Assembly: GCA_964394715.1 (NCBI GenBank)
Contig: CAYMYR010000007.1
Location: 498 to 64,497, forward strand
DNA from: an uncultured Smithella sp.
GTDB taxonomy: Bacteria > Desulfobacterota > Syntrophia > Syntrophales > Smithellaceae
Direction of reading: 5' to 3'
Length of the DNA: 64,000 nucleotides
The position numbers and the translations under genes are program-made. The notes under the pieces are model-generated. The model did no database searches, was not told the DNA's origin, and was given only the letters and a program-made list of their open reading frames with translations. Shown piece after piece: positions 6,688-47,419 of this stretch. Each line of letters opens with the position of its first letter. Positions within the stretch are counted from its first letter, which is position 1.

Positions 6688-7196
6688 AAGCAACGATCGA
6701 TGGAGCACCCTTTCTTCACAATTGAAGAGGACCCTCGAACAACGCATCACAGGAAAGGCCTCATCTGAAAGTCAGCCGTCCGATACTAACAACTTATCCG
6801 TCAACGAAGCAACATACTGTTAAGTTTTTTATACTATACAATTTATTACTACAATAGAGAATATGATTAAAGGCCATATATATTGTGATTAGCGGTCACG
6901 GGCCTATGAGTGTTCGCCATCGCCAGACGCCATGCGGTGGTCCAACTGTGCCGGAAAACCCTACTGAATTTCAACTGTATCATTCATCCGATATTTTTTT
7001 TACTCTCGTGGAACACTGAGATCTCCGGACAGAGGACACCCCGGTGACCGAAACTCACAAATGAAATGACCCCTCGGCAATATTGTTTTGGGCAACCCCG
7101 CCTGATATTGAAGCATACACAAGAAAATCAGGCAACATAAACATGTGAACAGGGATCGATGGCTTATCTTTCAATGCTGGAAAGGAGAGTTATCCA

Positions 7197-26285: not shown

Positions 26286-26951
26286 TTAATGTCGGGACTG
26301 TTTTCGCAGTCCGTCCAGAAATCTGTCCAGTGTTTCCGCGTATAGAGATCGGTATTCATCTTTTCCCAGGATGGTCTTCTCCAGTTTTTTTAACTGGATG
26401 ACTCCGTTAAACGCGCTCCACAGAATGATCGCCTGCCTCCGGGGATCCACCGGCTTGAACTCGCCGTTGTCGATGCCTTCCCGGATGGCCGCGGCAAGCA
26501 TGGAGATGCTGGCGTTGCCGTGCTCGTCAATGACTTTCTTCAAGTTCGGAGGGAAAATGGTTTCGGGAGACGTCAGAAAGTAAGTGATGATATCAAAATA
26601 ACTTTTGTGATCCTCACTGAACCTCAGGTAGGCCAATGCGATCGAGCGGATTTTTTTCTCCGGGGTCGGTTTTTTAGCGACTGCCTGACGAACCGCATGA
26701 TGGAGCAACTCCAGCCCTTCCAGCTGAAGGGCCGCGAAGAGTTCTTCTTTGTCCTTGAAATAAAAATAGATAGCTCCAACGCTTAATTCGGCACGTTTGG
26801 CAATCTGATTAATGGATGTGGCGTTCATTCCCTTTCCCAGAAGCAGTTCTCTTGCCGCGTCCAGGATATGACTCTTTCTCTGTTCTTTTTCTCTTTCCCG
26901 TCGTTCCTTGGCGCCCATCATACAGTCCTTTACATATTCTTTGTTTTTCAC
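26286..26951 (-). CDS. TetR-family transcriptional regulator
   Basis: HTH TSINQIAKRAELSVGAIYFYFKDKEELF. 221 aa. Confidence 0.85.
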   Translation of the reverse strand: MKNKEYVKDCMMGAKERREREKEQRKSHILDAARELLLGKGMNATSINQIAKRAELSVGAIYFYFKDKEELFAALQLEGLELLHHAVRQAVAKKPTPEKKIRSIALAYLRFSEDHKSYFDIITYFLTSPETIFPPNLKKVIDEHGNASISMLAAAIREGIDNGEFKPVDPRRQAIILWSAFNGVIQLKKLEKTILGKDEYRSLYAETLDRFLDGLRKQSRH

Positions 26952-27062
26952 TGGTCGGTTTTCCTGCTTACTCCATCCCAGGCTGATTAAATCAAAAAAT
27001 GAATTGCTCTTCTTGTCGCGATCGAAAGATCAGCATACCATAAACCTCATTGGAAAAGTTCC

Positions 27063-28351: not shown

Positions 28352-28381
28352 GATTTTCCTCCCGGTTCCGGAATGCCGCTG

Positions 28382-29671
28382 CTAGTCTTCATGTTCCAGG
28401 GTAATTCTTTCCACCTTGGCCAAATCCCTTTTATAGAAGAAGGAGCCAATAAAGAAAAGGCCCGATGCCGCCACAAGAAACAACGGCAGCATCGCTACCG
28501 CCGTAGCGATTCCGTATTTGTCGGACATGGCACCGATGAAGACCGGCCCTACGGATGCTCCCAGGAGGTTCTGCACGATGACGCAAAAGGCGTATGAAAC
28601 CGCGCGAAGTCCCGGATGGACCACGTCCTGGGTGACCGCTGCGGCGGCCGGCACGAAGGTCATCACAGTCAGTCCGCCGGCCAAAAGAAGAATATACTGG
28701 GTGGAGCCGGTGAACAATACAAAGGCCATGTAGAAGATGACAGCGGACAGGATGGCGGAGAGGGCGGACAGCAGAAGGCGAGCGTTTTCGCGCTTTTTCG
28801 TCCACATGTCGGCCAAAAAGCCTCCCAGGGGAGCGCCCACGATGGCCATCATCATGATGATGCCAACCTTCATTCCTGCCTGATCTACGGGGATGTTGTA
28901 GACGCGGTTCAGATAACTGGGAAGCCATGTCATCAGCGACGAGGTCACAAAGACCATGGCGGCAAATCCGAAGTAGGTCAAAATCAGCGAGGGCGTGTGG
29001 AGAAATTCACGCGCGATTTCGCCGGTTTTCATTTTGACCTTGGCGGAGGTTTCCTTGACCGTTTTCGTCAATTCAACGGTTTTATAGTCTTTGACGAAGA
29101 AAAAGAGAATTGCGACGATCAGTCCCGGAAGCGCCACCAGTCCGAAGGCATGGCGCCATCCCCAGTGGGTGGCGATGATTCCTCCCAGAGCAATTCCCAC
29201 GGCGCTTCCCAGGGGGATCGACATGTTCCAGATTCCCATCATGCGGGATCTCTTTTCCTCCGGATAAAGGCCGGCAATCATGGCAGTTCCCCCCGGAGCA
29301 TAGCCCGCCTCCCCGATGCCGATCAACATTCTGGCTGCCCGAAGCTGCGAGAAGCTCCGGGTAAGGGCGCAGGCCGCCGTGGCCAGACTCCATATGATCG
29401 CCATCAAACCGATGCTCTTCTTGCGGCTCCAGCGGTCCACGAGGATGGAGACGGGAAAAGTAAAAATGACGATCGACCAGTAAACCGCGGAAACCAGCAT
29501 GCCGCACTGTGCGTCGGTTATTCCCCAATCCGCTTTGATGAAGGGAAACAGAGACGTAACCACCAACCTGTCCACGTAGTCAAAAAAGTAGAGTAGGAAC
29601 AACAGGATAAAGATGTAGTTGGTGTACCCTTTTGATAGCTTGTATTCCTTGGGCGAAGTCAAGTTATTCAT
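28382..29671 (-). CDS. MFS transporter, anion:cation-symporter-like
   Basis: About 12 hydrophobic segments. N-terminal FFDYVDRLVV pattern and MFS motif A (LVDRWSRKKS). Confidence 0.8.
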   Translation of the reverse strand: MNNLTSPKEYKLSKGYTNYIFILLFLLYFFDYVDRLVVTSLFPFIKADWGITDAQCGMLVSAVYWSIVIFTFPVSILVDRWSRKKSIGLMAIIWSLATAACALTRSFSQLRAARMLIGIGEAGYAPGGTAMIAGLYPEEKRSRMMGIWNMSIPLGSAVGIALGGIIATHWGWRHAFGLVALPGLIVAILFFFVKDYKTVELTKTVKETSAKVKMKTGEIAREFLHTPSLILTYFGFAAMVFVTSSLMTWLPSYLNRVYNIPVDQAGMKVGIIMMMAIVGAPLGGFLADMWTKKRENARLLLSALSAILSAVIFYMAFVLFTGSTQYILLLAGGLTVMTFVPAAAAVTQDVVHPGLRAVSYAFCVIVQNLLGASVGPVFIGAMSDKYGIATAVAMLPLFLVAASGLFFIGSFFYKRDLAKVERITLEHED

Positions 29672-29735
29672 ACGAATTCCTCATTTTATTTAAAAGGTTT
29701 GGCTTGCCAGGCCGTTCGAAACAGTAAATCCCAAC

Positions 29736-31433
29736 TTACTGACATTTATATCCTCCGAGATTGGCCAGGGCAACGCTGCCGGGGCTGATCACAGACGAAT
29801 CTACCTTGACGTTGATGCAGGCCGTTTTCCCGGAGGCAAAGGCCGCTTCGAGCGCAGGCCGGATGTCTTCCGGTTTTTCAACAAAGGTGCCGAAGCCTCC
29901 CAAAACCTCCACCATCTTATGGTAATCCACCCAGCCCAGTTCCGTTCCATTCGGGATGCTGTGCCCCAGACGCAGCTGCTGGCTGTGCGCGATCATTCCC
30001 CAGGACTGATCATTGGCGATTACGACCACGATGGGCAGCTTCTTGCGGATCGCCGTATGAAACTCCATGAAGTTGAAACCGGCCGATCCGTCGCCCATAA
30101 CCAAGAGTACGCGCCTGTCCGGGTGTTTGAGCTTGGCCGCATTGGCGTAAGGGATGCCGACGGCCAGGCAGCCGTAAAGACCGTAATCCAGATAGGTCCC
30201 ACCTTTGACAACGGTCCGGGTCATGCCCATCCAGGTGGATGTGTCGCCGCCGTCGGCGACAACGATGTCATCTTCCCGGTCCATGAATTTATTGATTTCA
30301 TTGGCCAGACGCATGGGATGCATGGGCAGGGTTGCGCACTCCCACAAGGGTTGTGCTTCTTTTTTGCCGGCATCATGGGCGGTTCGGACGGTAGCCAGCC
30401 AGGGCTGGTACTGTGCCTTGAGAGTGTCGGCGATCTTTTGTTCATCGAGGTTAGCGTTGAGCTCCTTGAGGAATGACTTGGTGTCGCTTACGATACCGAG
30501 ATCAATCGTCCGGTTGCGCCCGATTTCATCCGGGGCGATGTCAACCTGAATAAATTTCGCCGTCGACGGGAAAATTTCACCGAAGATATAAAACAGACTC
30601 AACCGACCGCCCAGGAAGAGCACCAGGTCCGTGGTCATCAGCGTGATCATGGCCGAGCCGGGGCGGATGGCCAGAGAACCTTCAAAGCAAAGGGGATGGG
30701 TATCGGGGATAACGCCTCTTCCGGCGCCTGCCGTATAAATCGGGATACCGATCTTTTCCACGAATTCGATAATCTCTTTTTCCGCATCCGAATACCACAG
30801 ACCGCTTCCGCCGATCACAATCGGGTTTTTGGCCGCCTTGAGCAGGTCGACCACCTTCAGGGTATTCTCACGGTCAACGGGTTTGGATGAAAGCGTTGTG
30901 CGGGGCTTCTTGACAGCTGCCATATCCACCCTGGCATTCAGGACATTGCAGGGGAACTCCAGGTAGACCGGTCCGGGCCGTCCGCTCATGGCCGCCCGGA
31001 AGGCCATATCGACGTATTCGGGGATGCGTTCCGGAACATAGCAGACGAAGGCCTTCTTCACCATCGGCTCAATAACCGGTAGCTGTGTCATATCCTGCAG
31101 GTCCAGTTTTTCCGCTGCTTCGGTTCCCACGCAGCCGGCAATCAAAATGACCGGTGCGTTGGAGAGCCTGGCGCTGGCGATGCCGCTCAGGGCATTGGTG
31201 AATCCCGGTCCGGCCGTAACCATAGCCACCGCGGGCTTACGGTTCATCCGGGCCGAGGCCTCGGCCATAAAGACCGCCGCCTGTTCATGGCGAACGTCAA
31301 AAATCGTGATGGGTGTATTCTCCAGATACTGGTAAATCGGCGTAATATGCCCGCCGCTCAGGGAATAGATGTAATCCACACCCCGGTCGACCAAAGCATC
31401 CGCGACGAGCTTGCCACCAATAATGTTTTCCAT
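29736..31433 (-). CDS. Thiamine-diphosphate enzyme, acetolactate synthase / oxalyl-CoA decarboxylase superfamily, substrate unknown
   Basis: Start moved to ATG 31433 (AGGAGG 8 nt upstream). Motifs VRHEQAAVFMAEA, GPGFTNA and the TPP motif GDGSAGFNFMEFHTAIRKKLPIVVVIANDQSWG. Confidence 0.85.
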   Translation of the reverse strand: MENIIGGKLVADALVDRGVDYIYSLSGGHITPIYQYLENTPITIFDVRHEQAAVFMAEASARMNRKPAVAMVTAGPGFTNALSGIASARLSNAPVILIAGCVGTEAAEKLDLQDMTQLPVIEPMVKKAFVCYVPERIPEYVDMAFRAAMSGRPGPVYLEFPCNVLNARVDMAAVKKPRTTLSSKPVDRENTLKVVDLLKAAKNPIVIGGSGLWYSDAEKEIIEFVEKIGIPIYTAGAGRGVIPDTHPLCFEGSLAIRPGSAMITLMTTDLVLFLGGRLSLFYIFGEIFPSTAKFIQVDIAPDEIGRNRTIDLGIVSDTKSFLKELNANLDEQKIADTLKAQYQPWLATVRTAHDAGKKEAQPLWECATLPMHPMRLANEINKFMDREDDIVVADGGDTSTWMGMTRTVVKGGTYLDYGLYGCLAVGIPYANAAKLKHPDRRVLLVMGDGSAGFNFMEFHTAIRKKLPIVVVIANDQSWGMIAHSQQLRLGHSIPNGTELGWVDYHKMVEVLGGFGTFVEKPEDIRPALEAAFASGKTACINVKVDSSVISPGSVALANLGGYKCQ

Positions 31434-31466
31434 AATCAATCCTCCTAATGATCGGTACATTGACCG

Positions 31467-32306
31467 TTATAATTCCATACATTGCCCGCCATCAATATTA
31501 ATGGCCTGTCCGGTAATATAGCGCGAAGCGTCTGAGCCAAGGAAGGCAACCAGATCGGCCACTTCACGGGGTGGTCCGATGTAGCCCAGCGGAATCGTTT
31601 TGCACATTTCTTTTTCCCGCTCTTCAATTGTCGTTCCGAAAAAAGACGCCTCCAGTCCGAAACGCCACTTCTCCAGATCCGTGGCGATTTGCCCCGGACA
31701 GATAGCGTTCACACGAATGCCGCTTCCACCCATCTCTTTAGCCATGGTCTTTGTCAGCATGATGACGCCGGCCTTGGCCACCGCATAGGCACTGTTAAAA
31801 ATGGGAGGGACCTTGCCGGCCCGGGAGGCCGTGTTGATGATGCTTGCGGGTTTACCCGTCATAAGTGGGATGACAGCACGCGAGACGCGAAAGACCGAAA
31901 ACAGGTTTACGTCAATCGTTTTGATCCACGCCGCTTCATCATATCCCAGAACCGTATTGGGCACGCCGAAGGAAGCCCCCGCATTGTTGCAGAGAATATC
32001 GACATGGTCAAAACTGTCCGTGATGGTTTTCACCATTTCGGCAATGGCCTGATGGTTCGTAAGGTCGACGGGCACAGCCAGCGTCCGGACGCCGTAAGTC
32101 TTTGCCAGTTCGACGGCAATAGCCGTCATCTCTTCACTCGTAGCAGATTTCAAAGATTGGTCCGACGGCGGCGCGATGCCCAGATCGGCGATGACGATAT
32201 TGCAGCCGCAGGACGCCAGTTTTTGCGCAATTGCATAGCCAATGCCCGTTTTCTTGCCGGATCCTGTGACAATGGCTGTCTTTTCTTTCAAATCACTATA
32301 AATCAT
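31467..32306 (-). CDS. Short-chain dehydrogenase/reductase (FabG-like)
   Basis: Start moved to ATG 32306 (GAAGGAGG 5 nt upstream), overlapping the upstream gene's stop by 11 nt. Motifs [17 protein letters not shown] and YAVAKAG. Confidence 0.85.
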
Positions 32307-34059
32307 CGGTTCCTCCTTCATCGTACCAGTTATGATGGTCCAGGTGAGCGTACTTGGGCAGAAAACGGGTCGGCAAAGCCAATGCATCTTTCCGGAAAGG
32401 CGGGGCCAGCTGCTTGCCATCCACCAGAAATTCGAGAACCGTGGGCTTGCGGCTTTTCAGGCAGGCATCCAATGCTCCCCGGATATCCGCAGGCTTGCTG
32501 ACCTGCATACTGTTGGCGCCCATCGCCTTTGCCACAGGGACAAAGCTTTCCGGATTGGGAATATCGACGCCAATGAAACGGTTATTGTAAAAGTCCACCT
32601 GGTTTTTCGCCTCGGCGCCCCACCACATGTTGCGGAAAACACAGGCAACGACGGGCAGGTTGTGTTCAACGGCCGTGCTTACCTCATGGAGGCTCATGCC
32701 CCACGCACCATCGCCGATGATCGCGATGACCGGTGCCTTGCGTCGGGCGATCTGTGCGCCCAGGGCCGCGGGATAAGCAAAACCCGTATTGCCGAAAGTG
32801 AGCGCCGCGATATGCTGCCGGGGGTGATTGAACTTCAGGTAACTGTTGGCCGTGGAGGCGACGTTTCCGATATCCGTCGTGACAATGGCATCCTCCGGGA
32901 GGGCCCTGGAGATTTCCAGTAGGACACGGCGGGGATTCATGGGATTGCCCTCCACCATTGCCAGAGAGACAATCTCTTTTTCCCAGATCTTTTTTTCCCT
33001 CGCGACGGCGGCCAGACGTTTTTCATTGGGCTTACGTTTCCCGTCCACGGCCTTGAGGCGCTTCAGGATTTCCACCGTGGCCTCCTTTGCGTCACCGATA
33101 ATGCCGACCTCGATGGGATGGGTCCGCGCGATATGCTTGGGATTGATGTCAATCTGAATAATCTTCGCATTCTCCGGGAAGTAGTTGATATCATACTGGG
33201 GCAGCGTCCCAAAGACAGAGAGGCGTGTGCCGATGGCCAGCATAACGTCGGCCCTGGCCAATGTCTTCATGGCCGCCTTGGAGCCCATGTAGCCGATGGG
33301 ACCGACGAACAGCGGATGGTTTCCGTAAAACGCGTCGTTGTGGAGATAGGTCACGGCAACGGGGGCCGTCAGGTGTTCGGCGATCGCCTTCACGATATCG
33401 AGCGCGTCGGCATCCACGACACCGCGTCCGGAAACGATAACGGGGTTTTTGGCTTTGGAAAGCAGTTCGGCGGCCCGGTTCAGCTGTTCCATGGAACCAC
33501 AGCCGCGGTCGTCTACACGGTACTGCGAGGGTTTCAGGATTTTATCCTCCAGTTCGCCATAGAAGTAGTCGCGCGGGATGTCATACAGGACGGCACCGCG
33601 ATCGGCATAGGCGATGCGGAAGGCCGTCCGCAGACAATCAGCCGCGCGTTTGGGATGCGGCACACGGACAACCGCCTTCGTTACCGAACGGAAAACGGAC
33701 ATCTGGTCGCACTCCTGGAAGCCGTCCCAGCCGATTGTGGGTGTTCCGGCCGAGGGCGAAATAATCACCAGGGGCGTATGGCCCATGTTTGCCGCGGCAA
33801 CTGACGTCACCATGTTCGTAATGCCGGGGCCGTTCTGGCCTGTGACGACGCCGCAGCGGCCGGATATGCGGCTGTACGCATCTTCCATGTGGGCGGCGCT
33901 CTGTTCATGACGGACGGGGATGAACTTGATCCCGGCCGTCGGGAAGAGGTCAAGCATGTCCATGAACGCTGATCCGACGATGCCGCATACATGATCCACG
34001 CCTTCCGCAAGCAGCGTCTCAACGATGGCTTCGCTGGGTGTCATTTTAATCTTTTTCAT
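32296..34059 (-). CDS. xsc: TPP enzyme, probable sulfoacetaldehyde acetyltransferase (Xsc-like)
   Basis: Start moved to ATG 34059 (GGAGGT 7 nt upstream), giving 587 aa. The blocks [61 protein letters not shown] and [17 protein letters not shown] match my memory of characterised Xsc better than IlvB or Gcl. The TPP-enzyme call is secure. The Xsc assignment is tentative and was not checked by alignment. Confidence 0.6.
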
Positions 34060-34127
34060 TTTGATTACCTCCACTATCGATTCATTGTTGAATGGTTGAA
34101 AAACGCGGTCGTTCACGGCCCGTTTCA

Positions 34128-35324
34128 TTATTTCCGTAAAACCGCCCAGGATTCCTCGGCGATCATTTTCTCTTCATCCGTCGGTATGACGAAAACATTG
34201 ATCTTTGATTCCTGCGTGGATATGATCCTTTCGTCATCACCCCTGTCATTTTTGTCTTCATCAATGATGATGCCCAGCCAGGACAAGAAAGTGCAGATCC
34301 GCTGGCGCGTTTGCGGCGAGTGCTCACCGATCCCTGCCGTGAAGGCCAGGGCATCCAGTCCGTCGATGGCCGGAATGAGGGAACCTATACCCCGGGCCAC
34401 ACTGTATGCAAAAACGGTCAGTGCAAGGTGCGCCCGCTCATGGCCTTCGGCGGCCGCCTTTTCCAGGTCGCGAAAGTCAGGGGACAGGCCGGAAATACCC
34501 AGTACGCCGCTCTGCCGGTTCAGGATATCCATAACGCCGGCCATGGAGGATCTTTCCTTTTCCATGATGAACGAAACGACTGCCGGATCGATGTCTCCCG
34601 AGCGCGTACCCATGACGAGTCCCGACAACGGCGTAAATCCCATCGATGTATCCAGCGACTTGCCTCCCGCAACGGCGCAGAGACTGGAGCCGGCGCCGAG
34701 ATGACAGGTGATGATTCTCGGTGTTGCGGTCTTATCCTGCAGGAGTGCCGCCGTGCGGCGGGCGACATACCGGTGTGACGTTCCATGGAAACCGTAGCGA
34801 CGGATATGGTCCTCTGTATAATAACGATAAGGGATCGCGTAGGTGAAAGCATGCGCGGGCATGCTCTGGTGAAAAGCTGTATCGAACACCGCCACCTGGG
34901 GTACGCCGGGCATCAGGTTTGTGCAGACATCGATCCCCATCAGGTTCGGCGGATTATGGAGCGGCGCAAGTTTCTTCGTTGATTCGAGTATTTTGCGTAT
35001 GGCGGGATCGACGACAACAGAGGTGCGGAAATGTTCACCGCCGTGAACGACACGGTGCCCGACACCACCAATTTCCTTCATATCCGTCAGAATGCCTTGC
35101 CTGCCGTCAACCAGATGGGTCAGCAAGGCATGCACCGCATCATGATGGCTGGAAAGAGGCGTTTTGTCCAGAAAGGTTTCACGTCCCTGCACGTCATGTT
35201 GAAACAAGGCATCGGGCAGACCGATGCGGTCCGCCTGGCCCTGGGCCAGGACTTGGCTTGTCTCCATCTCGTAGAGCTTGTATTTGAGAGATGAGCTTCC
35301 GCAATTCAAGACCAGTATCTTCAT
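34128..35324 (-). CDS. ackA: Acetate kinase
   Basis: [35 protein letters not shown] and AFTAGIGE. The start lies 15 nt after the dsrP stop. Confidence 0.92.
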
Positions 35325-35339
35325 AAGATATAAACCTCA

Positions 35340-36527
35340 TTACTTTCCATTTGCAACAGGCCGGTTATCGTCACTGCCCGTTTCACTGTATACGCTGATA
35401 AAAATCTTATAAAGCAGGGTCAAAATCAGAAAACCTATCGCCCATACCCCTGCGGTAATGGCGATTTCCGCCCCCGTCGGGAAATATTCGGTAACGGTTT
35501 CCAGCGGCGAGGGGATGAAACCGGTTACGACCAGACCGAGGCCCTTTTCAATCCAGAGAGAAACAAATACAAAAACACAGGCGATGGCAAGCCACTCTTC
35601 CCTGCGGCGGATGGACGGGATGATCAGCATCGTCAGAGCGGCAAAGGCCAGTACGGCGGATGTCCACATCCAGGGCACAAGATTATGATGGTCATCCAGA
35701 CCTGCAAAAAGGTACTGGAAATGACGGGTTTGTTCCGGGATCTGACTGTAAAAGGCGGTAAACAGTTCCATGAGGACAAAAAAGATGCTTGCCGCCAGAG
35801 CATAAACCACGATCTTGGAAAGGGCCTGAATGGCCCTGTCGCCGGCGTCAAACCGTCCATAACGTTTCAGGATCAGGCAGAAAAGAATCAACAGAGCCGG
35901 ACCCGAAGCAAAGGCGGAAGCCAGGAATCGTGGTGCCATAATCGCTGTCAGCCAGAAACTTCTGCCGGGAAGACCTGCATAGATGAAGGCCGTTACCGTG
36001 TGGATGCTGATCGCCCAGGGAATCGAGAGATAGATCAGGGGCTTGATCCAGCCGGGGGGAGGGACTTCCCTTCGATTACAGGACAGGATCATCCAACCGG
36101 TAATGATGTTGATCAGGAGATAACCGGAAAGGACGATCATGTCCCAGAAAAGGATGGAGGTCGGCTGCGGATGCAGCAGGACATTCATGACGCGGGATGG
36201 CTGGCCGAGATCAACGAAGACGAACAGTATGCACATGATGACGGCGGCGACAGCCAGGAACTCACCCAGCACGGTGATCTTTCCGAATGCCTTGTAGTCA
36301 TGCAGGTAGTAGGGCAGTACCAGCATAACGGCCGACGCAGCAACACCTACCAGGAACGTGAACTGGGCGATATAAAGCCCCCAGGAAACGTCCCGGCTCA
36401 TTCCCGTAACGCCCAGACCGTAATCGAGCTGGTGCAGATAGAAGAGAACTCCTATTGTCATCATCACAAGCAGGAAGATGATCCAGATCCAGTATCCGCG
36501 GCTGCCTTTCAAGGCTTTTTCCAGCAT
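35340..36527 (-). CDS. dsrP: DsrP, NrfD/PsrC-like integral membrane subunit of DsrMKJOP
   Basis: 395 aa with about 10 hydrophobic helices. Positioned directly after dsrO. Confidence 0.85.
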   Translation of the reverse strand: MLEKALKGSRGYWIWIIFLLVMMTIGVLFYLHQLDYGLGVTGMSRDVSWGLYIAQFTFLVGVAASAVMLVLPYYLHDYKAFGKITVLGEFLAVAAVIMCILFVFVDLGQPSRVMNVLLHPQPTSILFWDMIVLSGYLLINIITGWMILSCNRREVPPPGWIKPLIYLSIPWAISIHTVTAFIYAGLPGRSFWLTAIMAPRFLASAFASGPALLILFCLILKRYGRFDAGDRAIQALSKIVVYALAASIFFVLMELFTAFYSQIPEQTRHFQYLFAGLDDHHNLVPWMWTSAVLAFAALTMLIIPSIRRREEWLAIACVFVFVSLWIEKGLGLVVTGFIPSPLETVTEYFPTGAEIAITAGVWAIGFLILTLLYKIFISVYSETGSDDNRPVANGK

Positions 36528-36534
36528 GGTGCCC

Positions 36535-37314
36535 TCATAATATATAATAAATCTGCGGCGCTGTGCCTAAATGCGCTTTTCTCCGCAGGTTAAAACGTTT
36601 TCCAATCAGCTTGCGGATGTCCGAAGTGGAATCATTCAGATCGCCAAACAAAATGGCGTTTTGCCGGCAGGCCAGAACACAGGCCGGCAGCTTTCCTTGA
36701 GCCAGCCTTTCTGCGCAGAAGTTGCACTTCTCCACGACACCTTTGGTACGCGTCGGGAAGTCGGGATTGATCTTCGTAATAAACGGCCGCGGGTCACGGA
36801 AATTCATGCTTCTTGCTCCGTAAGGGCAGGCGGCCATGCAAAGCCTGCAACCGATACAGCGGTGATAATCCATCATGACGATGCCATCGGGCCTCCGGAA
36901 TGTGGCCTTCGTGGGGCAGACCCGGACGCAGGGCGGATTTTCGCAGTGGTTGCATAAGACGGGCAGGCGCATCTTCTGCAGGCCCTGCTCCCGGTAGGGA
37001 TGATTTTCGTCGGGGAACACAGCGGCAAAAGGTTCGGTCCAGATCCATTTGACTTCATCTTTGGGGTTCCCGAAGTCCGGGACATTATGCACTGTATGGC
37101 AGGCGGTGATGCAGTCGGTGCAATCAGGGGGACATTTGGAGGCGTCAATCACCATGGCCCAGCGTTTGGCCATAAGTGCTTTCACGGGCGTGAAATCCTG
37201 ACCAGGAATCCGCACGGTCTCTCTGGCCCAAAGAGGGCTCAAAAGCGACGGCGTGACCAGTGTGAGGGCAGAGGCCCCAGCGATTTTTAAAAATTCTCGA
37301 CGGTTCGTGGTCAT
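36535..37314 (-). CDS. dsrO: DsrO, periplasmic 4Fe-4S ferredoxin-like subunit
   Basis: Start moved to ATG 37314 (an ATGA overlap with the dsrJ stop). Tat signal NRREFLK. Cluster motifs CNHCENPPCVRVCP, CIGCRLCMAACP and CNFCAERL. Confidence 0.88.
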   Translation of the reverse strand: MTTNRREFLKIAGASALTLVTPSLLSPLWARETVRIPGQDFTPVKALMAKRWAMVIDASKCPPDCTDCITACHTVHNVPDFGNPKDEVKWIWTEPFAAVFPDENHPYREQGLQKMRLPVLCNHCENPPCVRVCPTKATFRRPDGIVMMDYHRCIGCRLCMAACPYGARSMNFRDPRPFITKINPDFPTRTKGVVEKCNFCAERLAQGKLPACVLACRQNAILFGDLNDSTSDIRKLIGKRFNLRRKAHLGTAPQIYYIL

Positions 37315-37715
37315 TTTTTCACCTCTCCGGGAATCACGTGGCAATCAAAACAGGTGGGCTTGGCACCCACATAGTTATGGCAGCGGTCGCAGAACTGTTC
37401 CTTGTTCGAGTGGCACTGGATGCAGGTTCCGGTCAGGCTTTTTTCGAATCTGCGGCCGTCTTTCGCGGTGTATTCTCGCTTTCCTTCGCGGACGACCTCG
37501 TCGCGCCAGGCATTGAGCAGCTTCATATGGTTGGCGCGCATGAACGCCGTATCCTCCACACAGCGCTTTTCCTTCAATTGAGCAATGGCTGGCGTATCAA
37601 GGCTGAGCAGCACAGGAGCTATCGATTTCCCCCTGCCGTACCAGAAGGGGAAGGTGATCCCGATAAGAAAGATCACGAGTCCCAATGCTATCATGCCCCA
37701 TTTTTTATTTTTCAT
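37311..37715 (-). CDS. dsrJ: DsrJ, membrane-anchored triheme cytochrome c
   Basis: N-terminal hydrophobic anchor and three CxxCH motifs (CIQCH, CDRCH, CFDCH) within 134 aa. Confidence 0.88.
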   Translation of the reverse strand: MKNKKWGMIALGLVIFLIGITFPFWYGRGKSIAPVLLSLDTPAIAQLKEKRCVEDTAFMRANHMKLLNAWRDEVVREGKREYTAKDGRRFEKSLTGTCIQCHSNKEQFCDRCHNYVGAKPTCFDCHVIPGEVKK

Positions 37716-37777
37716 CTTTTCTATTTCCCGACGTAAAAACCCAGGTCGTCATTCCCTGCAAATCCATCTACCGTTCA

Positions 37778-39379
37778 CTATCCACTAATCCCATCCCCAC
37801 GCAGGTCCGTCGTTCTTTTCTTTTCTCCCGTCATGATTAGGGCATTGGCCAACAGTTCGTGAATACCCATGACGGAAACACCCGGGACCCAGTAGTCCAT
37901 AAGGGTGGTGAGCGTCGCCCGGTCAATCGCGCAGATGCAACCCAGGCGGTTCACACCGTGTTTTTTAACAACGTCCCGCACGGCCATGGCCCGCGGCATT
38001 CCACCGCGCATCCTCATTTCCATGTTTTCATCGTTGCCCAGCCCCGCCCCTGCGCCACAGCAGAAGGTTTTTTCGCGGATGGTGTCTTCGGCCATCTCAA
38101 AGAAATGGTTGCAGGCATTTTTAATAATATATCTCGGTTCCTCGAAAAGCCCCATGGCCCGCGCCGGGTTGCACGAATCATGGAAAGTCAGGCGGATATG
38201 ATCATTTCTCCGGGGATCTAATTTTAACTTCCCGTTCGCGATCAGGTCTGCCGTGAATTCGGTAATATGAACCATCTTTGTGGCCCGTGCGTTTTCAAAG
38301 CGTGTCCCCGTTATCGGGGAGACGGGTCCCGTGAGAAAATCAGCCGGCCCGTTCATCGTGTCCATGTACTGGTGAATTACGCGCCACATATGGCCGCACT
38401 CACCGCCGAGGATCCACTTTACGCCGAGGCGCTTCGCCTCCGCGTAAATCTTGGCGTTAAGGCGCTTGATCATGTCGTGGGATGTAAAGAGACCGAAATT
38501 GCCTCCTTCCGAGGCATAGGTGCTGAAGGTGTAATTGAGGCCGATTTCATGGAAAAGCATCATGTAGCCCATGCAGGTGTATGTGCCGGGGTCGGCAAAG
38601 TAGTCGGCGGACGGCGTAATGAAAAGAATGTCGGCACCCTTTTTGTTGAGGGGAACGTCCACCCGAACGCCCGTGCGGTCTTCGATATCATCGGCCATAA
38701 ACTCCAGCATGTCCTTGATCCCGCCGGGTTGGATGCCGAGGTGGTTGCCCGTCCGGAAGCAATTTGCTGCGGGTTCCAGAACCCAGTTGATGTTGCAGCC
38801 CACAAGGTTGAGCAGTTCACGGCCGATCATCGTGATTTCCGCCTGGTCGATGCCGTAGGGGCAGAAGACGGAGCAGCGCCGGCACTCTGTACACTGGTAG
38901 AAGTAGTAGAACCATTCCTTCAGGACGTCGACGGTCAGGTCCCTTGCGCCAACCAGTTTTCCGAAGCGTTTGCCCGACATCGTGAAGTAGCGCCGGTATA
39001 CGGAACGCAAGAGCTCGGCGCGCAGCACGGGCATGTTTTTGGGATCACCGGAACCGATATAAAAATGGCACTTGTCCGCGCAGGCTCCACAGCGCACGCA
39101 GATGTCCATGAACAGGCGGAAGGAACGGTACTTCTCCAGCCGCTCTTTCATGCCGTCTAAAATAATCTGTTTCCAGTTTTCCGGTAGTTTCCAGTCTTCG
39201 TCCGTGGGTTGCCAGGCCCGTGGATTGGGCAGGCCAAGGCTCACCAGATTCTTCGCGGCGGTGCTGTAGCTCCACGTTCCCGGACGGAAATCGACGGGCG
39301 TCTTCGTCCACTCGGACGCAGGCGGCGCGTAGTCGATGTTTATCAAGTCATCCGGTTTGGGTATCTTGGCAAATGACAT
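37778..39379 (-). CDS. dsrK: DsrK, HdrD-like catalytic Fe-S subunit
   Basis: CVRCGACADKC and CTECRRCSVFCP ferredoxin motifs, plus a C-terminal CCG domain (FCCGAGAGLG). Follows dsrM with a 2-nt gap. Confidence 0.9.
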   Translation of the reverse strand: MSFAKIPKPDDLINIDYAPPASEWTKTPVDFRPGTWSYSTAAKNLVSLGLPNPRAWQPTDEDWKLPENWKQIILDGMKERLEKYRSFRLFMDICVRCGACADKCHFYIGSGDPKNMPVLRAELLRSVYRRYFTMSGKRFGKLVGARDLTVDVLKEWFYYFYQCTECRRCSVFCPYGIDQAEITMIGRELLNLVGCNINWVLEPAANCFRTGNHLGIQPGGIKDMLEFMADDIEDRTGVRVDVPLNKKGADILFITPSADYFADPGTYTCMGYMMLFHEIGLNYTFSTYASEGGNFGLFTSHDMIKRLNAKIYAEAKRLGVKWILGGECGHMWRVIHQYMDTMNGPADFLTGPVSPITGTRFENARATKMVHITEFTADLIANGKLKLDPRRNDHIRLTFHDSCNPARAMGLFEEPRYIIKNACNHFFEMAEDTIREKTFCCGAGAGLGNDENMEMRMRGGMPRAMAVRDVVKKHGVNRLGCICAIDRATLTTLMDYWVPGVSVMGIHELLANALIMTGEKKRTTDLRGDGISG

Positions 39380-39381
39380 GG

Positions 39382-40383: not shown

Positions 40384-40393
40384 TTTCCTGCCT

Positions 40394-42945: not shown

Positions 42946-42997
42946 AGGGTGTTCCCTTTTGCTCACCTGATGCAGGCGACCGGCATAGTTGATCCGG

Positions 42998-43318
42998 TCA
43001 GACGCAACCTGTCGGCTTCGAAAGGCCTGCGAGTTTGCAGGCGCCTTTGGCCGGGCCGGTAGGAAAGAGCTCATAGAGCTTTTTCATATCAATCTTCAGG
43101 TCCTTGCAGATCTTCCGGATCATCGGCGCAATGCCGAACTGCTGGAAATAATCGCGCAGGTAGTTGATTACCCGCCAATGTTCTTCCGTCAGCTCTCCTT
43201 CAATCTCTTCCGTATGGGCGTAAGCATTGGCAAATTCTTCGCTCCACTTGTCGAGTTCCTGCAGAAATCCGTCTTCATCCACTTCATACGTTTTGCCTGC
43301 TAATTCAATCTGCGGCAT
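42998..43318 (-). CDS. dsrC: DsrC, sulfur-carrier/trisulfide protein of sulfite reduction
   Basis: 106 aa ending CKLAGLSKPTGCV, which has both conserved cysteines on the C-terminal arm. Confidence 0.92.
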   Translation of the reverse strand: MPQIELAGKTYEVDEDGFLQELDKWSEEFANAYAHTEEIEGELTEEHWRVINYLRDYFQQFGIAPMIRKICKDLKIDMKKLYELFPTGPAKGACKLAGLSKPTGCV

Positions 43319-44819
43319 AGTTAAAACCTCCTCTTTTCATCGATCTTATTGTGTGGTCCGCCCATCCGCCTGCAAGCGGAGTCACGTCGGGCCTGTCCAG
43401 GACACCGGCGCGGGCTTGATTTAGCTTAGTCTGGCGATACTCTCTGGCTCTGTCGATAAGTGCATCGGCCCATGCGGGCGTTCCCAGGGCATGCACATGT
43501 GTGAAGCTCCCCAGGATGTTATTTCTGCAAAGCCCCTCGCGACGGCCGTCAATACCCGTACCTTTCAACACGTTGAATGCGGTGCGCATGTCGCTGTCCC
43601 GGCCAGACAGAATCCGGCAGTAATGAAATTCGTGGCCGGTGATCGTCTGGCCGACGGGGAAAAAGGGATTATCCTGGTCTGCCACAAGCCTGGTGTAACC
43701 GTGTCCCTGCGGACGTTTCTCCAGGCAAAACGCCAGCGGCAGTGCGCCGGCCATCGGGTAGCGGTTGTCGCCGATCGAAAGGTATTCACCCAGGTACACG
43801 AAGCCCCCGCATTCTGCATAAATCGGCAGGCCGGCATCGCCGGCTTTTTTCACGGAATTGCGGAAGGATTCATTGGCGGCAAGCTCTCCTGCCTGTGTTT
43901 CGGGAAATCCTCCTCCGATGTACAGAGCATCAACGGGCGGCAGTGTTTTCTGCGAAAGGGCGCTGATAAAAACAACCCGGATGCCGCGGTCGGCGAGTGC
44001 TTCAATGTTATCCTCATAGTAGAACTGAAACGCCGTATCCCTGATGACGCCGATGGTAAGGGGATCATTTACCGTTTCGCAAGAGCATGAAGGCTTTGGG
44101 AAGGCGTCAATCTTCCAGGGTGGAGCGCTTCGGGCGACATCGAGCAGAGCGGGGATGTCCAGGTAGTCGCGGGCCATGGCGGACGCCCGTTCAAGCGCCT
44201 GATGGATGGAGCCATGCTCGTCGGGGGGAACAAGCCCCAGGTGCCGCTGCACGAAAGGCAGGTCCGGCAGGCGCGGTACGGTTCCGTAAACGGGCAGGCC
44301 GGTGTTGTCTTCAATGGATCGGCGGGTCACTGAGGCATGGCGCTGTCCGTTCACCCGGCTCAGGATCACCCCCCGGATGTCCACGGCGGGATCGAGATGC
44401 AGGCAGCCCAGAACCATTGCCGCCGCTGTTCGCGTTACCTTGTCGCAGTCGACAACCAAAATGACCGGAGCCTGAAGAAGTTTGGCAAGTTGGGCCGTGC
44501 TGAATTCCCCGGCGGCATTGACGCCGTCGAAAAGCCCCCGACTGCCTTCAATGATGGAAACGGCGCCTTCCACGGCGTGGCGCGAAAAGGAGCGGACGAC
44601 CTGATCGTTGCCCATGAGAAAGGTGTCCAGGTTATAGCAGTTGCCGGATGCCGCCTGAGACAACCAGGCAGCGTCGATGTAGTCCGGTCCCTTTTTGAAA
44701 GGGGCAACTGGAATGCCCTGCCTGCGCAGGGCGACGGCCATCGCCACGGACAAGGTCGTTTTTCCCGCCCCACCACGCAGGGCGGCCACAACGAAACGCG
44801 GGCATTGTCTGTTCATCAT
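43305..44819 (-). CDS. dsrN: DsrN, cobyrinic acid a,c-diamide synthase-like (siroheme amidase)
   Basis: N-terminal ALRGGAGKTT nucleotide-binding loop and a C-terminal glutamine amidotransferase domain (IYAECGGFVYLG, GHEFHY). Positioned between dsrD and dsrC. Confidence 0.85.
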   Translation of the reverse strand: MMNRQCPRFVVAALRGGAGKTTLSVAMAVALRRQGIPVAPFKKGPDYIDAAWLSQAASGNCYNLDTFLMGNDQVVRSFSRHAVEGAVSIIEGSRGLFDGVNAAGEFSTAQLAKLLQAPVILVVDCDKVTRTAAAMVLGCLHLDPAVDIRGVILSRVNGQRHASVTRRSIEDNTGLPVYGTVPRLPDLPFVQRHLGLVPPDEHGSIHQALERASAMARDYLDIPALLDVARSAPPWKIDAFPKPSCSCETVNDPLTIGVIRDTAFQFYYEDNIEALADRGIRVVFISALSQKTLPPVDALYIGGGFPETQAGELAANESFRNSVKKAGDAGLPIYAECGGFVYLGEYLSIGDNRYPMAGALPLAFCLEKRPQGHGYTRLVADQDNPFFPVGQTITGHEFHYCRILSGRDSDMRTAFNVLKGTGIDGRREGLCRNNILGSFTHVHALGTPAWADALIDRAREYRQTKLNQARAGVLDRPDVTPLAGGWADHTIRSMKRGGFNYAAD

Positions 44820-44836
44820 CCTTCACCCCGGGTTCA

Positions 44837-45061
44837 TCATTCCTTCGGAAAGAATTCCGCAAGCATGATGTAAGTTGAGCTGCCGCTCGACCAGTATTTC
44901 AACACTTCTTCATCCAAAAGCTCCTTTACGACGTTCTGCACGGCGTGGCGATCCTCGTCGGGGAGCCACTTCGTGACATCACGTATGTAAAACATCTTTT
45001 TGTCGCCCCGGGACTTCTCCCGGAACAGGTTCGTGACGCGTACCTTCAGGTCCTCGCTCAT
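44837..45061 (-). CDS. dsrD: DsrD, small winged-helix protein of the dsr operon
   Basis: Start moved to ATG 45061 (GGAGG 6 nt upstream, 2 nt after the dsrB stop), giving 74 aa. Lys-rich KSRGDKKMFYIRD segment. Position immediately after dsrB. Confidence 0.85.
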   Translation of the reverse strand: MSEDLKVRVTNLFREKSRGDKKMFYIRDVTKWLPDEDRHAVQNVVKELLDEEVLKYWSSGSSTYIMLAEFFPKE

Positions 45062-45063
45062 AA

Positions 45064-46125
45064 CTACCTCCATTTGAACTGCGCAGACGTTCGGAACGTC
45101 TCCGTAGCCAGGTCAAAGTCATCGATGTGCTGGTCCGTAAACGGGATGCCCGTCAGACTGAAAAAACGTTCCCAGCCCACACGATTGATCCACTCACCGA
45201 TGCGTTCATGCTTCCGGGCATGGGTCGCGTATACTTCAATGATATTCTTGACCGCATGCACGACTTCCGGCCAGCGCGGCGGGTTGTTTGGGAGAAACGG
45301 AATCGCCAGCTTGGAGAACATGGGGGCGCTACGGGCATTCGATACCTTGCCGCCAACCCAGATGGAGATCCCGTCGTTGTCGGGATCGGCAATCGGCATC
45401 GCCGGGCAAACCGTGTAGCAGTTGCCGCAGTACATGCATTTCTCTTCATTGACGGCGACGCTTTTGTTCTTCATGTCGCCCCGGATGGCTCCCGTCGGGC
45501 AGGAGGCCACGGTCGATGGAATCTCGCAGACGTTGGGAACGCGTGCGTTGTCGACTTTGGGGACCGTCCGGTGGATGCCCAGGATGGCAATGTCGGAGCA
45601 GTGTACGGCGCCGCACATATTCAGGCAGCAGGCCAGCGCAATCCGCACGTGCGCAGGCAGTGTCGCCGTCACAAAGTAGTCGTAAATTTCGTCCATCAGC
45701 GCTTTAACAGGGCCGGAGGCGTCCGTCGCCGGTGTGTGACAGTGCACCCACCCCTGCGTATGGACGATGTTGGAGATGGAGTGTCCTGTACCGCCCACCG
45801 GGTAGCCCCGGTTTTTTAGTTCTTCGATCAGAGGTTCGATCCTATTCTTGTCATCCAGAAGAAACTCGATGTTGTGACGGCTGGTGAATCGCAGGAAACC
45901 ATCACAGTATTTTTCGGCGATGTCGCAGATTTCGCGGATGTGATCCGTGGAAACCAGCCGGGGTGATCCGGCGCGTATACTGTAGAGCGCCTCTCCGGAT
46001 TGGGAGATGTGCATCAGGACGCCCGGTTTCAGGATTTCGTGGTAGAGCCATTTCCCGTAATTTCTCTGGATGACGGGAGGCAGCATGGTCTTATAATCAG
46101 GGGGTCCGATGTCCGTTTTTGCCAT
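45064..46125 (-). CDS. dsrB: Dissimilatory sulfite reductase beta subunit
   Basis: [16 protein letters not shown] siroheme/cluster region, [11 protein letters not shown], and the ferredoxin insert CPTGAIRG...[12 protein letters not shown]. Confidence 0.93.
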
Positions 46126-46126
46126 T

Positions 46127-47314
46127 TTACTTCACCTCCTTCTTAATGTCTTCCGGCCAGAAAAAGACGTAGGGATTCGTCCGCGGCGCCTTAACCATCT
46201 GGGGTACCGCTTGAAGCCCAACAGCTTTCAAAAAGACGCGCATGCCCAGCCGGGTGATGAGCTCGCCCAGCCGCTCACGCGATTTACCGTTTTCGTCCCA
46301 CCAATCCTGGATGCGTTCAATGAGGCTTTTCAGTTCACCGTAGGGCGGTTCAAGCTTCATGAACGGTACAATGACCCAGGACAGGAGCGCGCCCTTGACA
46401 ATTGGTGCCTTGCCGCCGACAAGTATGGTTGCGCCTTTTTCCTTCCCGGGCCGCAGGGCCTTCGGCATCAGGTTGATGCAGTGCATGCAGCGTGTGCAGT
46501 CCTCGTTGTAGATTTTCAGATCCCTGCCGTTCCATTCCATGCAGCGTGTCGGGCACAGATCACAGACTTCTTTTTGGATGTTGATCCTTGAAGCATAGGC
46601 TAGGACTTCCTGTGGATTGATCTGAATATCGTCCTTCCAGGTTCCGATGATCGACAGGTCGGAGCGGGCGATGGAGGCCACGCAGTCGTTCGCGCATGCG
46701 GAAACTTTGATCTTGAATTTGTAGGGGAACATGGGACGATGGATTTGGTCCTGGTACGTCATCGTGATGTCGTAACAGATGTCGAGGCTGTCGATGCAGG
46801 CCCATTCGCAGCGGGCCGGCCCGACACAGGCGCTGGGTGTGCGCAGGGCCGAACCGGATCCGCCGAGGTCAAAGCCGGCTGAAGAGAGATCGTCAAAGCA
46901 GGCCTGGAGATGGTTCGTTGTTGTTCCCAGCAGAATGGCGTCGCCTGTGGAGCCGTGCATGTTCGTGAGTCCGCTGCCGTGCTTGTCCCAGATGTCGCAG
47001 AGTTTGCGCAGAGTGTCCGTCCTGTAGAACCAGCCGGTCGGGTGATTGACCCGCATTGTGTGGAAGGCCTGAACATTCGGAAACAGGTCCGGGCGGTCAG
47101 AATAGCGCCCGATGACACCGGCGCCGTAGCCCTTGACGCCCACGATGCCTCCGTGCTTCCAATGGCCGATCTTATCCCTGTATGACAGCTCCAACTGCTG
47201 AACAAGATCCCTGGCCATGGCATTCTTCTGTGCGGCCTGTTTCATATCCTTGACGAAGCTTGGCCATTTTCCATCTTCCAGTTCATCGAGCAAGGGTGTG
47301 TCTGATTTCGACAT
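46127..47314 (-). CDS. dsrA: Dissimilatory sulfite reductase alpha subunit
   Basis: [19 protein letters not shown]-terminus, [12 protein letters not shown] and SACANDC cluster motifs, and a ferredoxin insert CDLCPTRC...CTRCMHC. AGGAGG SD lies upstream of the ATG. There is a 1-nt gap to dsrB. Confidence 0.93.
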
Positions 47315-47391
47315 GTTTATCCTCCTTTTTATACAAATTCAATGGGTTAGGAGTATTAAATACATAAAATTGAATACCATTCATAATTTGA

Positions 47392-47419
47392 ATAGTACTA
47401 TTTTTGTGAAATATGTCAA
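47392..47419 (-). promoter_or_regulatory. Candidate sigma70-type promoter of the dsr array
   Basis: Read on the minus strand: TTGACA (47419-47414), a 16-nt spacer, then TACTAT (47397-47392). This implies a 5' UTR of about 70 nt before dsrA. Confidence 0.4.

Follow-up and report, generated by a model that had tools for sequence, protein, structure and literature searches.

Gene content of the dsr-ackA-xsc locus

We analysed a 64,000-nt stretch of DNA from an uncultured Smithellaceae bacterium of the order Syntrophales (contig CAYMYR010000007.1, positions 498 to 64,497; the whole stretch is hereafter called the window). Its minus strand carries a unit of about 20 kb in which the genes of dissimilatory sulfite reduction (dsr) are joined to those for acetate kinase (ackA) and for a thiamine pyrophosphate (TPP) enzyme assigned below to sulfoacetaldehyde acetyltransferase (Xsc). 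The order is dsrABDNC-M'K'-MKJOP-ackA-xsc-SDR-TPP2-MFS-ZnADH-orf83, then tetR (Table 1), where SDR is a short-chain dehydrogenase/reductase, TPP2 a second TPP enzyme, MFS a major facilitator superfamily transporter and ZnADH (Zn-ADH) a zinc-dependent alcohol dehydrogenase. We put the probability that this unit is an organosulfonate-respiration operon, with Xsc releasing the sulfite that Dsr would reduce, at roughly three in four.

Gene identities were taken from the open reading frame (ORF) map of the window and from family scans against NCBIfam equivalog and Pfam models; start codons for dsrMKJOP were adopted from the gene calls on an identical contig (L001). Contigs identical to the window are present in two public sequencing runs, and its nearest relatives are metagenome-assembled genomes (MAGs) labelled Smithella, Smithellaceae or Syntrophaceae. 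An initial annotation of this DNA had placed ackA and a 587-residue TPP enzyme directly after dsrP on the same strand, and all coordinates were confirmed (dsrP stop at 35340, ackA ATG at 35324). The same annotation took xsc-ackA to be attached to the 3' end of the dsr operon; the linkage stands, but the unit extends further, with five more genes following at gaps of at most 64 nt.

By gene content the Dsr set is of the reductive type: its subunits pass their models, DsrC has two C-terminal cysteines, and there is a DsrD, which according to Diao et al. (2023) activates DsrAB in both reducers and disproportionators. Neither dsrEFH nor dsrL was seen within the dsr operon of the window. The product of dsrM' has a weak match to the Nitrate_red_gam Pfam family, and the M'K' pair is conserved in synteny. 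We also observed such a DsrM-like/DsrK-like pair in two settings: in Syntrophales it is flanked by dsrC and dsrM inside the dsr operon, and in Syntrophomonadaceae MAGs it immediately precedes dsrAB (L070, 13751-16265). At the other end of the unit, orf83 is found 3' of Zn-ADH in more than 20 genomes at 60-76% identity, and its product contains several Cys and His residues (HC...YC...WC).

Table 1. Features of the dsr-ackA-xsc locus, with window coordinates, strand and the basis of each assignment (scores in bits, against the model cut-off where one is given)
Feature	Position	Strand	Basis or remark
Predicted promoter (TTGACA, 16 nt, TACTAT) and downstream operator-like repeat (TATTCAA, 11 nt, TATTCAA)	47353..47419	-	Sequence reading; dsrA ATG about 40 nt beyond
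dsrA	46127..47314	-	TIGR02064, 562.6 bits vs cut-off 392.85
dsrB	45064..46125	-	TIGR02066, 532 bits vs 341.5
dsrD	44837..45073	-	PF08679, 56.3 bits vs 24.2
dsrN-type cobyrinic acid a,c-diamide synthase homologue, in the siroheme amidase position	43305..44819	-	NF002204, 421 bits; TIGR00379, 412 bits
dsrC, both C-terminal cysteines (...ACKLAGLSKPTGCV)	42998..43318	-	TIGR03342, 118.6 bits; translation
dsrM'-dsrK' paralogue pair, 314 aa + 536 aa	40394..42945	-	DsrK model 344 bits, under cut-off 400
dsrM	39382-40374	-	Passes NCBIfam equivalog cut-off
dsrK	37778-39379	-	Passes NCBIfam equivalog cut-off
dsrJ	37311-37715	-	Passes NCBIfam equivalog cut-off
dsrO	36535-37314	-	Passes NCBIfam equivalog cut-off
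dsrP	35340-36527	-	NF045798, 493 bits vs cut-off 350
ackA, acetate kinase, 398 aa	34128..35324	-	TIGR00016, 477.4 bits vs 293.4, over residues 1-395
xsc, sulfoacetaldehyde acetyltransferase (EC 2.3.3.15), 587 aa	32296..34059	-	TIGR03457, NF005713, tree
SDR oxidoreductase, 279 aa	31467..32306	-	Start codon overlaps xsc stop by 11 nt
TPP2, TPP enzyme of the benzaldehyde-lyase/HACL/Oxc clade, 565 aa	29736..31433	-	Under every NCBIfam cut-off
MFS transporter, anion:cation symporter type (D-galactonate-transporter-like)	28382..29671	-	TIGR00893, 171 bits, under cut-off; retained across copies of the module
Zn-dependent alcohol/polyol dehydrogenase (Zn-ADH), 340 aa	27329..28351	-	Best matches threonine-3-, idonate-5- and iditol dehydrogenases, all under cut-offs
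orf83, conserved ORF, 83 aa	27063..27314	-	Without Pfam or NCBIfam match
tetR-family regulator (26286-26951) with its own predicted promoter	26286..26996	-	TTGATT, 17 nt, TAGGAN with TG extension, in 111-nt spacer

Sequence evidence identifies the 587-residue TPP enzyme as Xsc

The initial annotation had called the 587-residue enzyme Xsc-like from its conserved blocks, and the family models bear this out. The protein scores 841.5 bits on TIGR03457 (cut-off 676.4) and 842.4 bits on NF005713 (cut-off 620). Its best non-Xsc model is biosynthetic acetolactate synthase (AHAS), at 399 bits against that model's own cut-off of 538, and it fails the cut-offs of every acetolactate synthase, Gcl, Oxc and pyruvate oxidase model. 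TPP2 reaches just 242 bits on the Xsc model. A 610-residue ORF that starts at 34128 is an in-frame upstream extension of the 587-residue xsc, whose start is at 34059.

Placement of the enzyme in either the Xsc clade or one of the IlvB, Gcl and Oxc clades had been set beforehand as a phylogenetic check. A neighbour-joining tree (568 columns, 100 bootstraps) was built from 16 Xsc sequences together with IlvB, IlvI, Gcl, Oxc, PoxB and TPP2. As references we used annotated plasmid xsc genes (Sinorhizobium meliloti pSymB, where xsc sits in a tauABC-tauXY-xsc-tauZ-pta cluster; Rhodococcus xsc-pta; Paracoccus) and Escherichia coli gcl, oxc, ilvI, ilvB and poxB. All 16 Xsc sequences, including that of the window, form one clade with 100% bootstrap support, apart from IlvB/IlvI/Gcl (99%) and from Oxc plus TPP2 (97%); a non-Xsc placement was not seen. 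Within this clade the Syntrophales Xsc nests inside a Firmicutes Xsc group (8-member clade, 100% bootstrap). Identity of the window Xsc is 77-78% to the enzymes of the cultured Desulforamulus ruminis, D. aeronauticus and Desulfofundulus thermobenzoicus, 71-74% to Bacillaceae xsc, 50-51% to Rhodococcus and 38-40% to proteobacterial sequences.

Xsc is little characterized (PMC13327070), and the Protein Data Bank (PDB) contains no Xsc structure; the best solved relative of the window enzyme is AHAS, at 226 bits. The cofactor-activating Glu51 (VRHEQ), Gln115 (GFQECDQ), the TPP-binding GDG449-451 and Glu483 (WWGAE) do not vary among the Xsc of Syntrophales, Firmicutes and Bacillaceae. Gln115 and Glu483 correspond, by motif position and not by direct alignment, to Q125 and E510 of Q84H41, which a 2026 paper lists for Xsc (PMC13327070). 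By model scores and tree placement, then, the 587-residue enzyme is a true Xsc.

The xsc-dsr linkage is conserved among Syntrophales

To place the locus in a wider setting we scanned one genome per GTDB species, which gave 80 loci annotated by tblastn with the window proteins. For the linkage count we kept those genomes whose Xsc is 82% or more identical and whose available upstream sequence reaches 3.5 kb or more (n = 37). Of these related Syntrophales genomes, one per species, 31 have dsrP on the same strand and no more than 3.1 kb upstream of xsc, and the longer loci carry the complete dsrC-M'K'-MKJOP block. The dsrP-xsc order is kept although DsrJ and DsrO diverge down to 52-60% identity. 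The adjacency of dsr and xsc is far beyond chance.

Some variation occurs between dsrP and xsc. In three genomes (L015, L025 and L038) ackA is missing and xsc comes immediately after dsrP, so that xsc rather than ackA is the constant partner of dsrP, and a Zn-ADH gene is inserted between dsrP and ackA in three deeper Syntrophales. On the other side, SDR-TPP2 follow xsc in 32 of 48 related genomes. Eight Smithellaceae genomes have a 564-residue gene between dsrP and ackA (L003, 7026-8720; L017, L018, L023, L026, L028, L035 and L059), encoding a flavoprotein that resembles CoA-disulfide reductase (CoADR) with a C-terminal rhodanese domain; its domains suggest an extra persulfide- or thiol-handling step.

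The linkage recurs outside the Syntrophales. Two Syntrophomonadaceae MAGs (Bacillota) have the order AFOR-MFS-dehydrogenase-TPP2like-xsc-SDR with a divergent tetR, then M'K'-dsrAB-dsrMK. On this different gene order, the Syntrophomonadaceae arrangement is a second, independent xsc-dsr linkage. The Bacillaceae xsc genes that are 71-74% identical to that of the window have no dsr nearby. The G+C content of the dsr-xsc block (28000-46000) is 51-58%, against about 45-50% in the flanks at 16-26 kb and 46-54 kb; together with the nesting among Firmicutes Xsc, this contrast is compatible with horizontal acquisition.

Two loci hold xsc in other surroundings. A 4.77-Mb Smithellaceae contig has a second xsc type, 87% identical and not beside dsr (L006, 3837-11746), which is preceded by genes for a molybdopterin oxidoreductase, an HcyBio-family protein and a CCG-domain (HdrD-like) Fe-S protein. 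The other locus is from a Syntrophales MAG and has no dsr beside it (L041, 4708-9934): genes for a DASS-family transporter and for a putative sulfate exporter of the YeiH/TauZ type precede ackA-xsc-SDR-TPP2, and behind these come an SBF-family transporter gene and another SDR. It resembles a variant of the module for export rather than for respiration.

A common promoter/operator precedes the separate modules

The genes from dsrA to orf83 are tightly packed: the largest gap is 68 nt, and several genes overlap. That largest gap separates ackA from xsc and contains GGAGG 8 nt ahead of the ATG at 34059; between dsrP and ackA there are 15 nt with a GAGG ribosome-binding site, then the ackA ATG. 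A consensus scan detected no terminator-like site in any operon spacer, and the ackA-xsc spacer folds worse than shuffled sequence (z = +1.15). A Rfam scan of the whole window was empty, hence no riboswitch or leader. Consensus promoter matches numbered 10, against 12.8 in shuffles, and such scans say little alone.

Comparison between loci was more informative. In three relatives (L024, L030 and L036), 370-435 nt separate dsrP from ackA, and a 32-nt motif, TTGACATATTT-N9-AGTACNATTCAA, lies 43-65 nt before ackA; all 22 of its specified bases are as in the dsrA promoter of the window, where the copy spans 47388-47419. A search of 1.62 Mb of loci, allowing up to 4 mismatches, returned only these three matches and that at dsrA of the window. 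Five more turned up when every JGI metagenome contig was scanned for exact matches: four lie 75-80 nt upstream of dsrA in Smithellaceae-type dsrAB loci (DsrA 82-98% identical), and the fifth is upstream of a stand-alone SDR-TPP2-MFS-tetR unit. Nine copies are thus known, five at dsrA, three at ackA-xsc, one at SDR-TPP2 and none elsewhere; three of the five dsrA copies (window, L089 and L092) come from near-identical organisms. In each copy a second YATTCMA-like repeat stands 18 nt beyond the motif. Searching 1.65 Mb with a profile of all nine, including the Firmicutes loci and the Syntrophales loci with xsc away from dsr, revealed no further copy.

Judged from these copies, one predicted promoter/operator heads dsr, ackA-xsc and SDR-TPP2 wherever they are separate, and the three are fused behind a single copy in the window organism. 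Co-transcription of ackA-xsc with dsr, as the initial annotation had proposed, or at least co-regulation, is supported in silico by the small spacers, the lack of a hairpin, the synteny and the common promoter/operator. We also observed that in the stand-alone SDR-TPP2 locus (L093, 2640-2920) a leader of about 290 nt follows the dsr-type promoter; it contains a long inverted repeat (GTCATTGCGAG ... CTCGCAATGAC), possibly an inserted repeat element.

A tetR gene, with a conserved promoter of its own, travels with the module in both phyla and also stands beside the stand-alone SDR-TPP2-MFS genes, which makes its product the obvious candidate regulator. We considered the palindrome TGATTTAATCA upstream of tetR as a TetR operator. 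What is conserved at this site is the -35 region of the tetR promoter, with which it coincides, and not the palindrome as such. Nor does the window have an excess of the 11-mer (4 occurrences for 1.55 expected; at least 4 in 9 of 100 shuffles), and this candidate was dropped.

TPP2 and the predicted feeder steps

TPP2 groups with Oxc (97% bootstrap), and among PDB entries it is nearest to HACL/S (279 bits) and benzaldehyde lyase (BAL; 267 bits). Both share the fold family with TPP2, at a similarity that is low on these scores. TPP2 retains the equivalents of BAL His29 (GGH(I)) and Gln113, plus an NQSWG stretch after the GDG motif, and lacks the carbanion-protonating Glu found in Xsc and actinobacterial HACL. 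The His29 equivalent is retained in the Syntrophomonadaceae TPP2 homologue too, while the top HACL/S structure (8vza) has proline at that position. The 120 best TPP2 homologues belong to Syntrophales wherever the organism is named, and carry generic names only. By tree and motifs TPP2 belongs to the Oxc/HACL/benzaldehyde-lyase clade, an assignment that covers clade membership only.

The genomic partners of TPP2, namely Xsc, SDR and an anion transporter, lead us to expect a small sulfonated substrate and not benzoin or an acyl-CoA. This BAL-like enzyme probably feeds Xsc. We conjecture that an imported sulfonate is turned into sulfoacetaldehyde by SDR and TPP2, with Zn-ADH in an accessory role. 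In the simplest case sulfolactate would be oxidized to sulfopyruvate and the latter decarboxylated to sulfoacetaldehyde; a non-orthologous enzyme would then take the place of ComDE, through which Roseovarius nubinhibens reaches Xsc. Equally conjectural, the BAL-type His would favour instead the cleavage of an alpha-hydroxy-carbonyl compound, such as oxidized 2,3-dihydroxypropane-1-sulfonate (DHPS) or sulfolactaldehyde.

A further role for TPP2, that of a CoA-dependent HACL acting on sulfolactyl-CoA, was set aside. The module conserves neither a CoA ligase nor a CoA transferase, the neighbouring gene for a GNAT/ADP-forming acyl-CoA synthetase (23518-26238) is convergent and absent from the other loci, and TPP2 retains the BAL His that 8vza lacks; this idea is kept as a minor possibility.

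A model for organosulfonate respiration

Taken together, the gene content suggests the following scheme. One promoter/operator upstream of dsrA would drive about 20 kb, from dsrABDNC probably to orf83, and tetR would have its own promoter. The MFS permease would bring in an anionic sulfonate, which SDR, Zn-ADH and the BAL-like TPP2 would turn into sulfoacetaldehyde. Cytoplasmic Xsc would then convert sulfoacetaldehyde and phosphate to acetyl phosphate and sulfite, AckA would convert acetyl phosphate to acetate with the gain of one ATP, and DsrAB/DsrC would reduce the sulfite to sulfide, a step that DsrMKJOP would tie to the quinone pool. As a sink for six electrons and a source of substrate-level ATP, the sulfonate would offer a syntroph an alternative to electron disposal via its methanogenic partner.

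A broader proposal is that the dsr genes of Smithellaceae and related Syntrophales are neither a remnant nor a part of sulfate reduction but the terminal module of a dedicated sulfonate-induced regulon under one promoter/operator, probably TetR-responsive, and that SDR and TPP2 constitute an undescribed TPP-dependent route from sulfonates of C3 or larger to sulfoacetaldehyde. Candidate reactions would be oxidation of sulfolactate followed by decarboxylation of sulfopyruvate, or C-C cleavage of DHPS or sulfolactaldehyde. We advance this proposal tentatively, at somewhat less than even odds.

Several observations weigh against organosulfonate respiration by this operon. In 6 of the 37 relatives xsc lies apart from dsr, and three relatives provide ackA-xsc with a promoter of its own, which allows separate transcription of the modules. 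SDR, TPP2, MFS and Zn-ADH all fall under every curated family cut-off, and the window proteins scanned gave no match to Tpa, Ald, Toa, TauXY, SarD, IsfD, SauS or ComDE; with no sulfoacetaldehyde-forming enzyme recognized, the substrate and the feeder steps are conjecture. Moreover, the lack of sat, aprAB and qmo rests on the statement of one paper about one population (PMC10504345).

The first of these observations would also fit a dsr operon for general respiration of sulfite, thiosulfate or sulfate. In that case ackA-xsc and the genes behind them would be an opportunistic addition without a dedicated function, contributing only a minor share of the sulfite and fused to the 3' end of the operon by gene-order drift or horizontal insertion. 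The variable content after dsrP (CoADR-rhodanese, an extra Zn-ADH, ackA or SDR-TPP2 present or absent) is in keeping with this view, and the nested position of the Syntrophales Xsc among Firmicutes enzymes and the higher G+C of the block are what transfer might leave behind. Yet all nine copies of the motif stand at dsrA, ackA-xsc or SDR-TPP2, xsc stays the partner of dsrP across lineages whose Dsr proteins are down to 52-60% identical, and the one Smithellaceae population cited above is reported to carry dsrABD without the other key genes of sulfate reduction. We regard this explanation as unlikely. That the sulfonate is instead fermented, or used for carbon and ATP as in Desulfonispora thiosulfatigenes, with Dsr merely detoxifying the sulfite, is less likely still. 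Xsc and AckA alone give ATP, taurine fermentation based on Xsc is known (cited in PMC10507020), and in some relatives ackA-xsc lie beside a YeiH/TauZ-type putative sulfate exporter and not beside dsr (L041). Against it, the full DsrMKJOP, the M'K' pair, the two-Cys DsrC and DsrD are co-encoded here, an energy-conserving respiratory set and not a minimal detoxifying reductase; six electrons per sulfite would be a needless expense unless reductant is in surplus, which is exactly the situation of a syntroph.

A different kind of doubt concerns the 587-residue enzyme, which might be an Xsc-like paralogue acting on another 2-oxo or aldehyde sulfonate, or on phosphonoacetaldehyde. No sulfoacetaldehyde-producing enzyme is recognizable nearby, there is no Xsc structure in which substrate-binding residues could be checked, and identity is just 38-40% to proteobacterial and 50-51% to Rhodococcus xsc. 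We nevertheless consider a paralogue very improbable, given a score 165 bits over the equivalog trusted cut-off, the monophyly of the 16 Xsc sequences with 100% support, the 71-74% identity to Bacillaceae xsc and the pairing with ackA, which suits an enzyme that forms acetyl phosphate. Respiration of a sulfonate through Xsc and Dsr thus remains the reading that we prefer.

Comparison with known sulfonate-degrading systems

A known means of supplying Dsr with sulfite from sulfonates in Bilophila wadsworthia and Desulfovibrio is a glycyl radical enzyme (GRE) route, with SarD and the isethionate sulfite-lyase IslAB, or HpsG/HpfG for DHPS. There, too, an organosulfonate is the sulfite donor for Dsr respiration; the C-S bond, however, is cleaved by an oxygen-sensitive radical enzyme, whereas in the window this would be done by the TPP enzyme Xsc.

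The initial annotation had offered the Xsc route to Dsr sulfite as an alternative or addition to the GRE route. The biochemistry is not new: according to Ye et al. (2023; PMC10507020), Taurinivorans muris LT0009 (Desulfovibrionaceae) respires taurine via Tpa-Ald-Xsc, AckA and DsrAB/DsrC/DsrMKJOP. The core chemistry is that predicted here, with desulfonation of sulfoacetaldehyde by Xsc, ATP formation by AckA and respiration via Dsr of the sulfite released inside the cell. The fusion with dsr, by contrast, is apparently undescribed. The parts of that report open to us describe the taurine genes as co-encoded with tripartite ATP-independent periplasmic (TRAP) transporters and mention no xsc-dsr operon, whereas in the window xsc-ackA lie within, and are predicted to be co-regulated with, dsr. 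In T. muris sulfoacetaldehyde comes from taurine via Tpa and Ald, while the scanned genes of the window have no tpa or ald match and the candidate feeders are SDR, TPP2, MFS and Zn-ADH, in a Syntrophales syntroph as host.

The classical aerobic taurine cluster tauABC-tauXY-xsc-tauZ-pta, as in S. meliloti, shares with the window an orthologous xsc (just 38-39% identical at the protein level) and an adjacent gene that handles acetyl phosphate. It differs in having Pta instead of AckA and, as neighbour, a YeiH/TauZ putative sulfate/sulfite exporter and not a reductase. Peatland Acidobacteriota (Hausmann et al., 10.1101/197269) resemble the window organism as uncultured dsrAB carriers that have sulfite-reduction genes only, together with an enzyme releasing sulfite from an organosulfonate. 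In that case, however, the enzyme is the sulfolactate sulfo-lyase SuyAB, xsc is explicitly absent, and the association is one of co-occurrence in a genome, not of operon fusion or a common promoter.

Several studies have come close to the present locus. Co-occurrence of xsc and reductive dsrAB at the genome level is on record for subsurface MAGs (PMC12019592), as is the presence of DsrABD and DsrKJO in a Smithella MAG, with no sulfonate link drawn (PMC5946492). The Smithellaceae population with dsrABD and without other sulfate-reduction genes was noted as unexplained (PMC10504345), and the long-known uncultured DsrAB family lineage 6 was placed in Syntrophales with xsc unmentioned (Diao et al., 2023). 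In the papers that we read, Smithella and Smithellaceae appear as propionate oxidizers and as members of methanogenic oil-degrading consortia. Data with bromoethanesulfonate (PMC4985588) are uninformative: Smithella activity was undiminished with this compound, but likewise with propynoic acid. The literature searched, with most subscription journals outside its coverage, yielded no description of the operon fusion, the common promoter or TPP2. The physical and regulatory fusion of xsc with dsr, its wide conservation in a syntroph clade, the independent Firmicutes version and the co-regulated BAL-like TPP enzyme were thus found to be apparently undescribed.

The xsc-dsr operon may explain why Smithellaceae carry sulfite reductase and yet reportedly lack the rest of the sulfate-reduction pathway: if they respire sulfite derived from organosulfonates, their dsr genes have a concrete answer. 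Methanogenic habitats poor in sulfate would then have a cryptic path by which organic sulfur becomes sulfide, and an electron sink would compete with interspecies transfer of H2 and formate. Should the regulon proposal also be correct, canonical methanogenic syntrophs could switch to organosulfonate respiration, with electrons diverted from methane to sulfide. The analysis also flags two enzymes for biochemistry, a member of a little-characterized Xsc subgroup and the BAL-like TPP2, and the common promoter offers a simple handle on the remaining regulon in complete genomes.

Glycyl radical enzymes and other genes of the window

The window also encodes two GREs, both 28-30 kb from xsc, and we asked whether either could provide a second desulfonation route of the IslA or HpsG type. 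Against HpfG/HpsG cut-offs of 1000 bits, the GRE at 2183-4591 scores 431-434 and that at 60572-63910 scores 339-343, and no IslA model is among the matches of either. A second route through these enzymes was rejected on the curated cut-offs.

The first GRE (802 residues) belongs to a minus-strand group at 1099-6750 with genes for an acetoacetate-decarboxylase-family protein, an activase and an AraC regulator. It scores 649 bits against the generic PFL2-3 cut-off of 678, and is far under the HYPD, HpfG, HpsG and CutC cut-offs. The second, also on the minus strand (60572-63910), is a 1112-residue ORF in which a radical-SAM GRE activase (about residues 36-265) is fused to a GRE (about residues 286-1109); the fusion is under all specific GRE cut-offs. 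Finally, an 815-residue fusion at 7197-9644 joins a GltD-like NAD(P)H flavoprotein with Fe-S domains to a C-terminal nitroreductase domain, and adjoins thiolase-like, acyl-CoA synthetase and acyl-CoA dehydrogenase genes.

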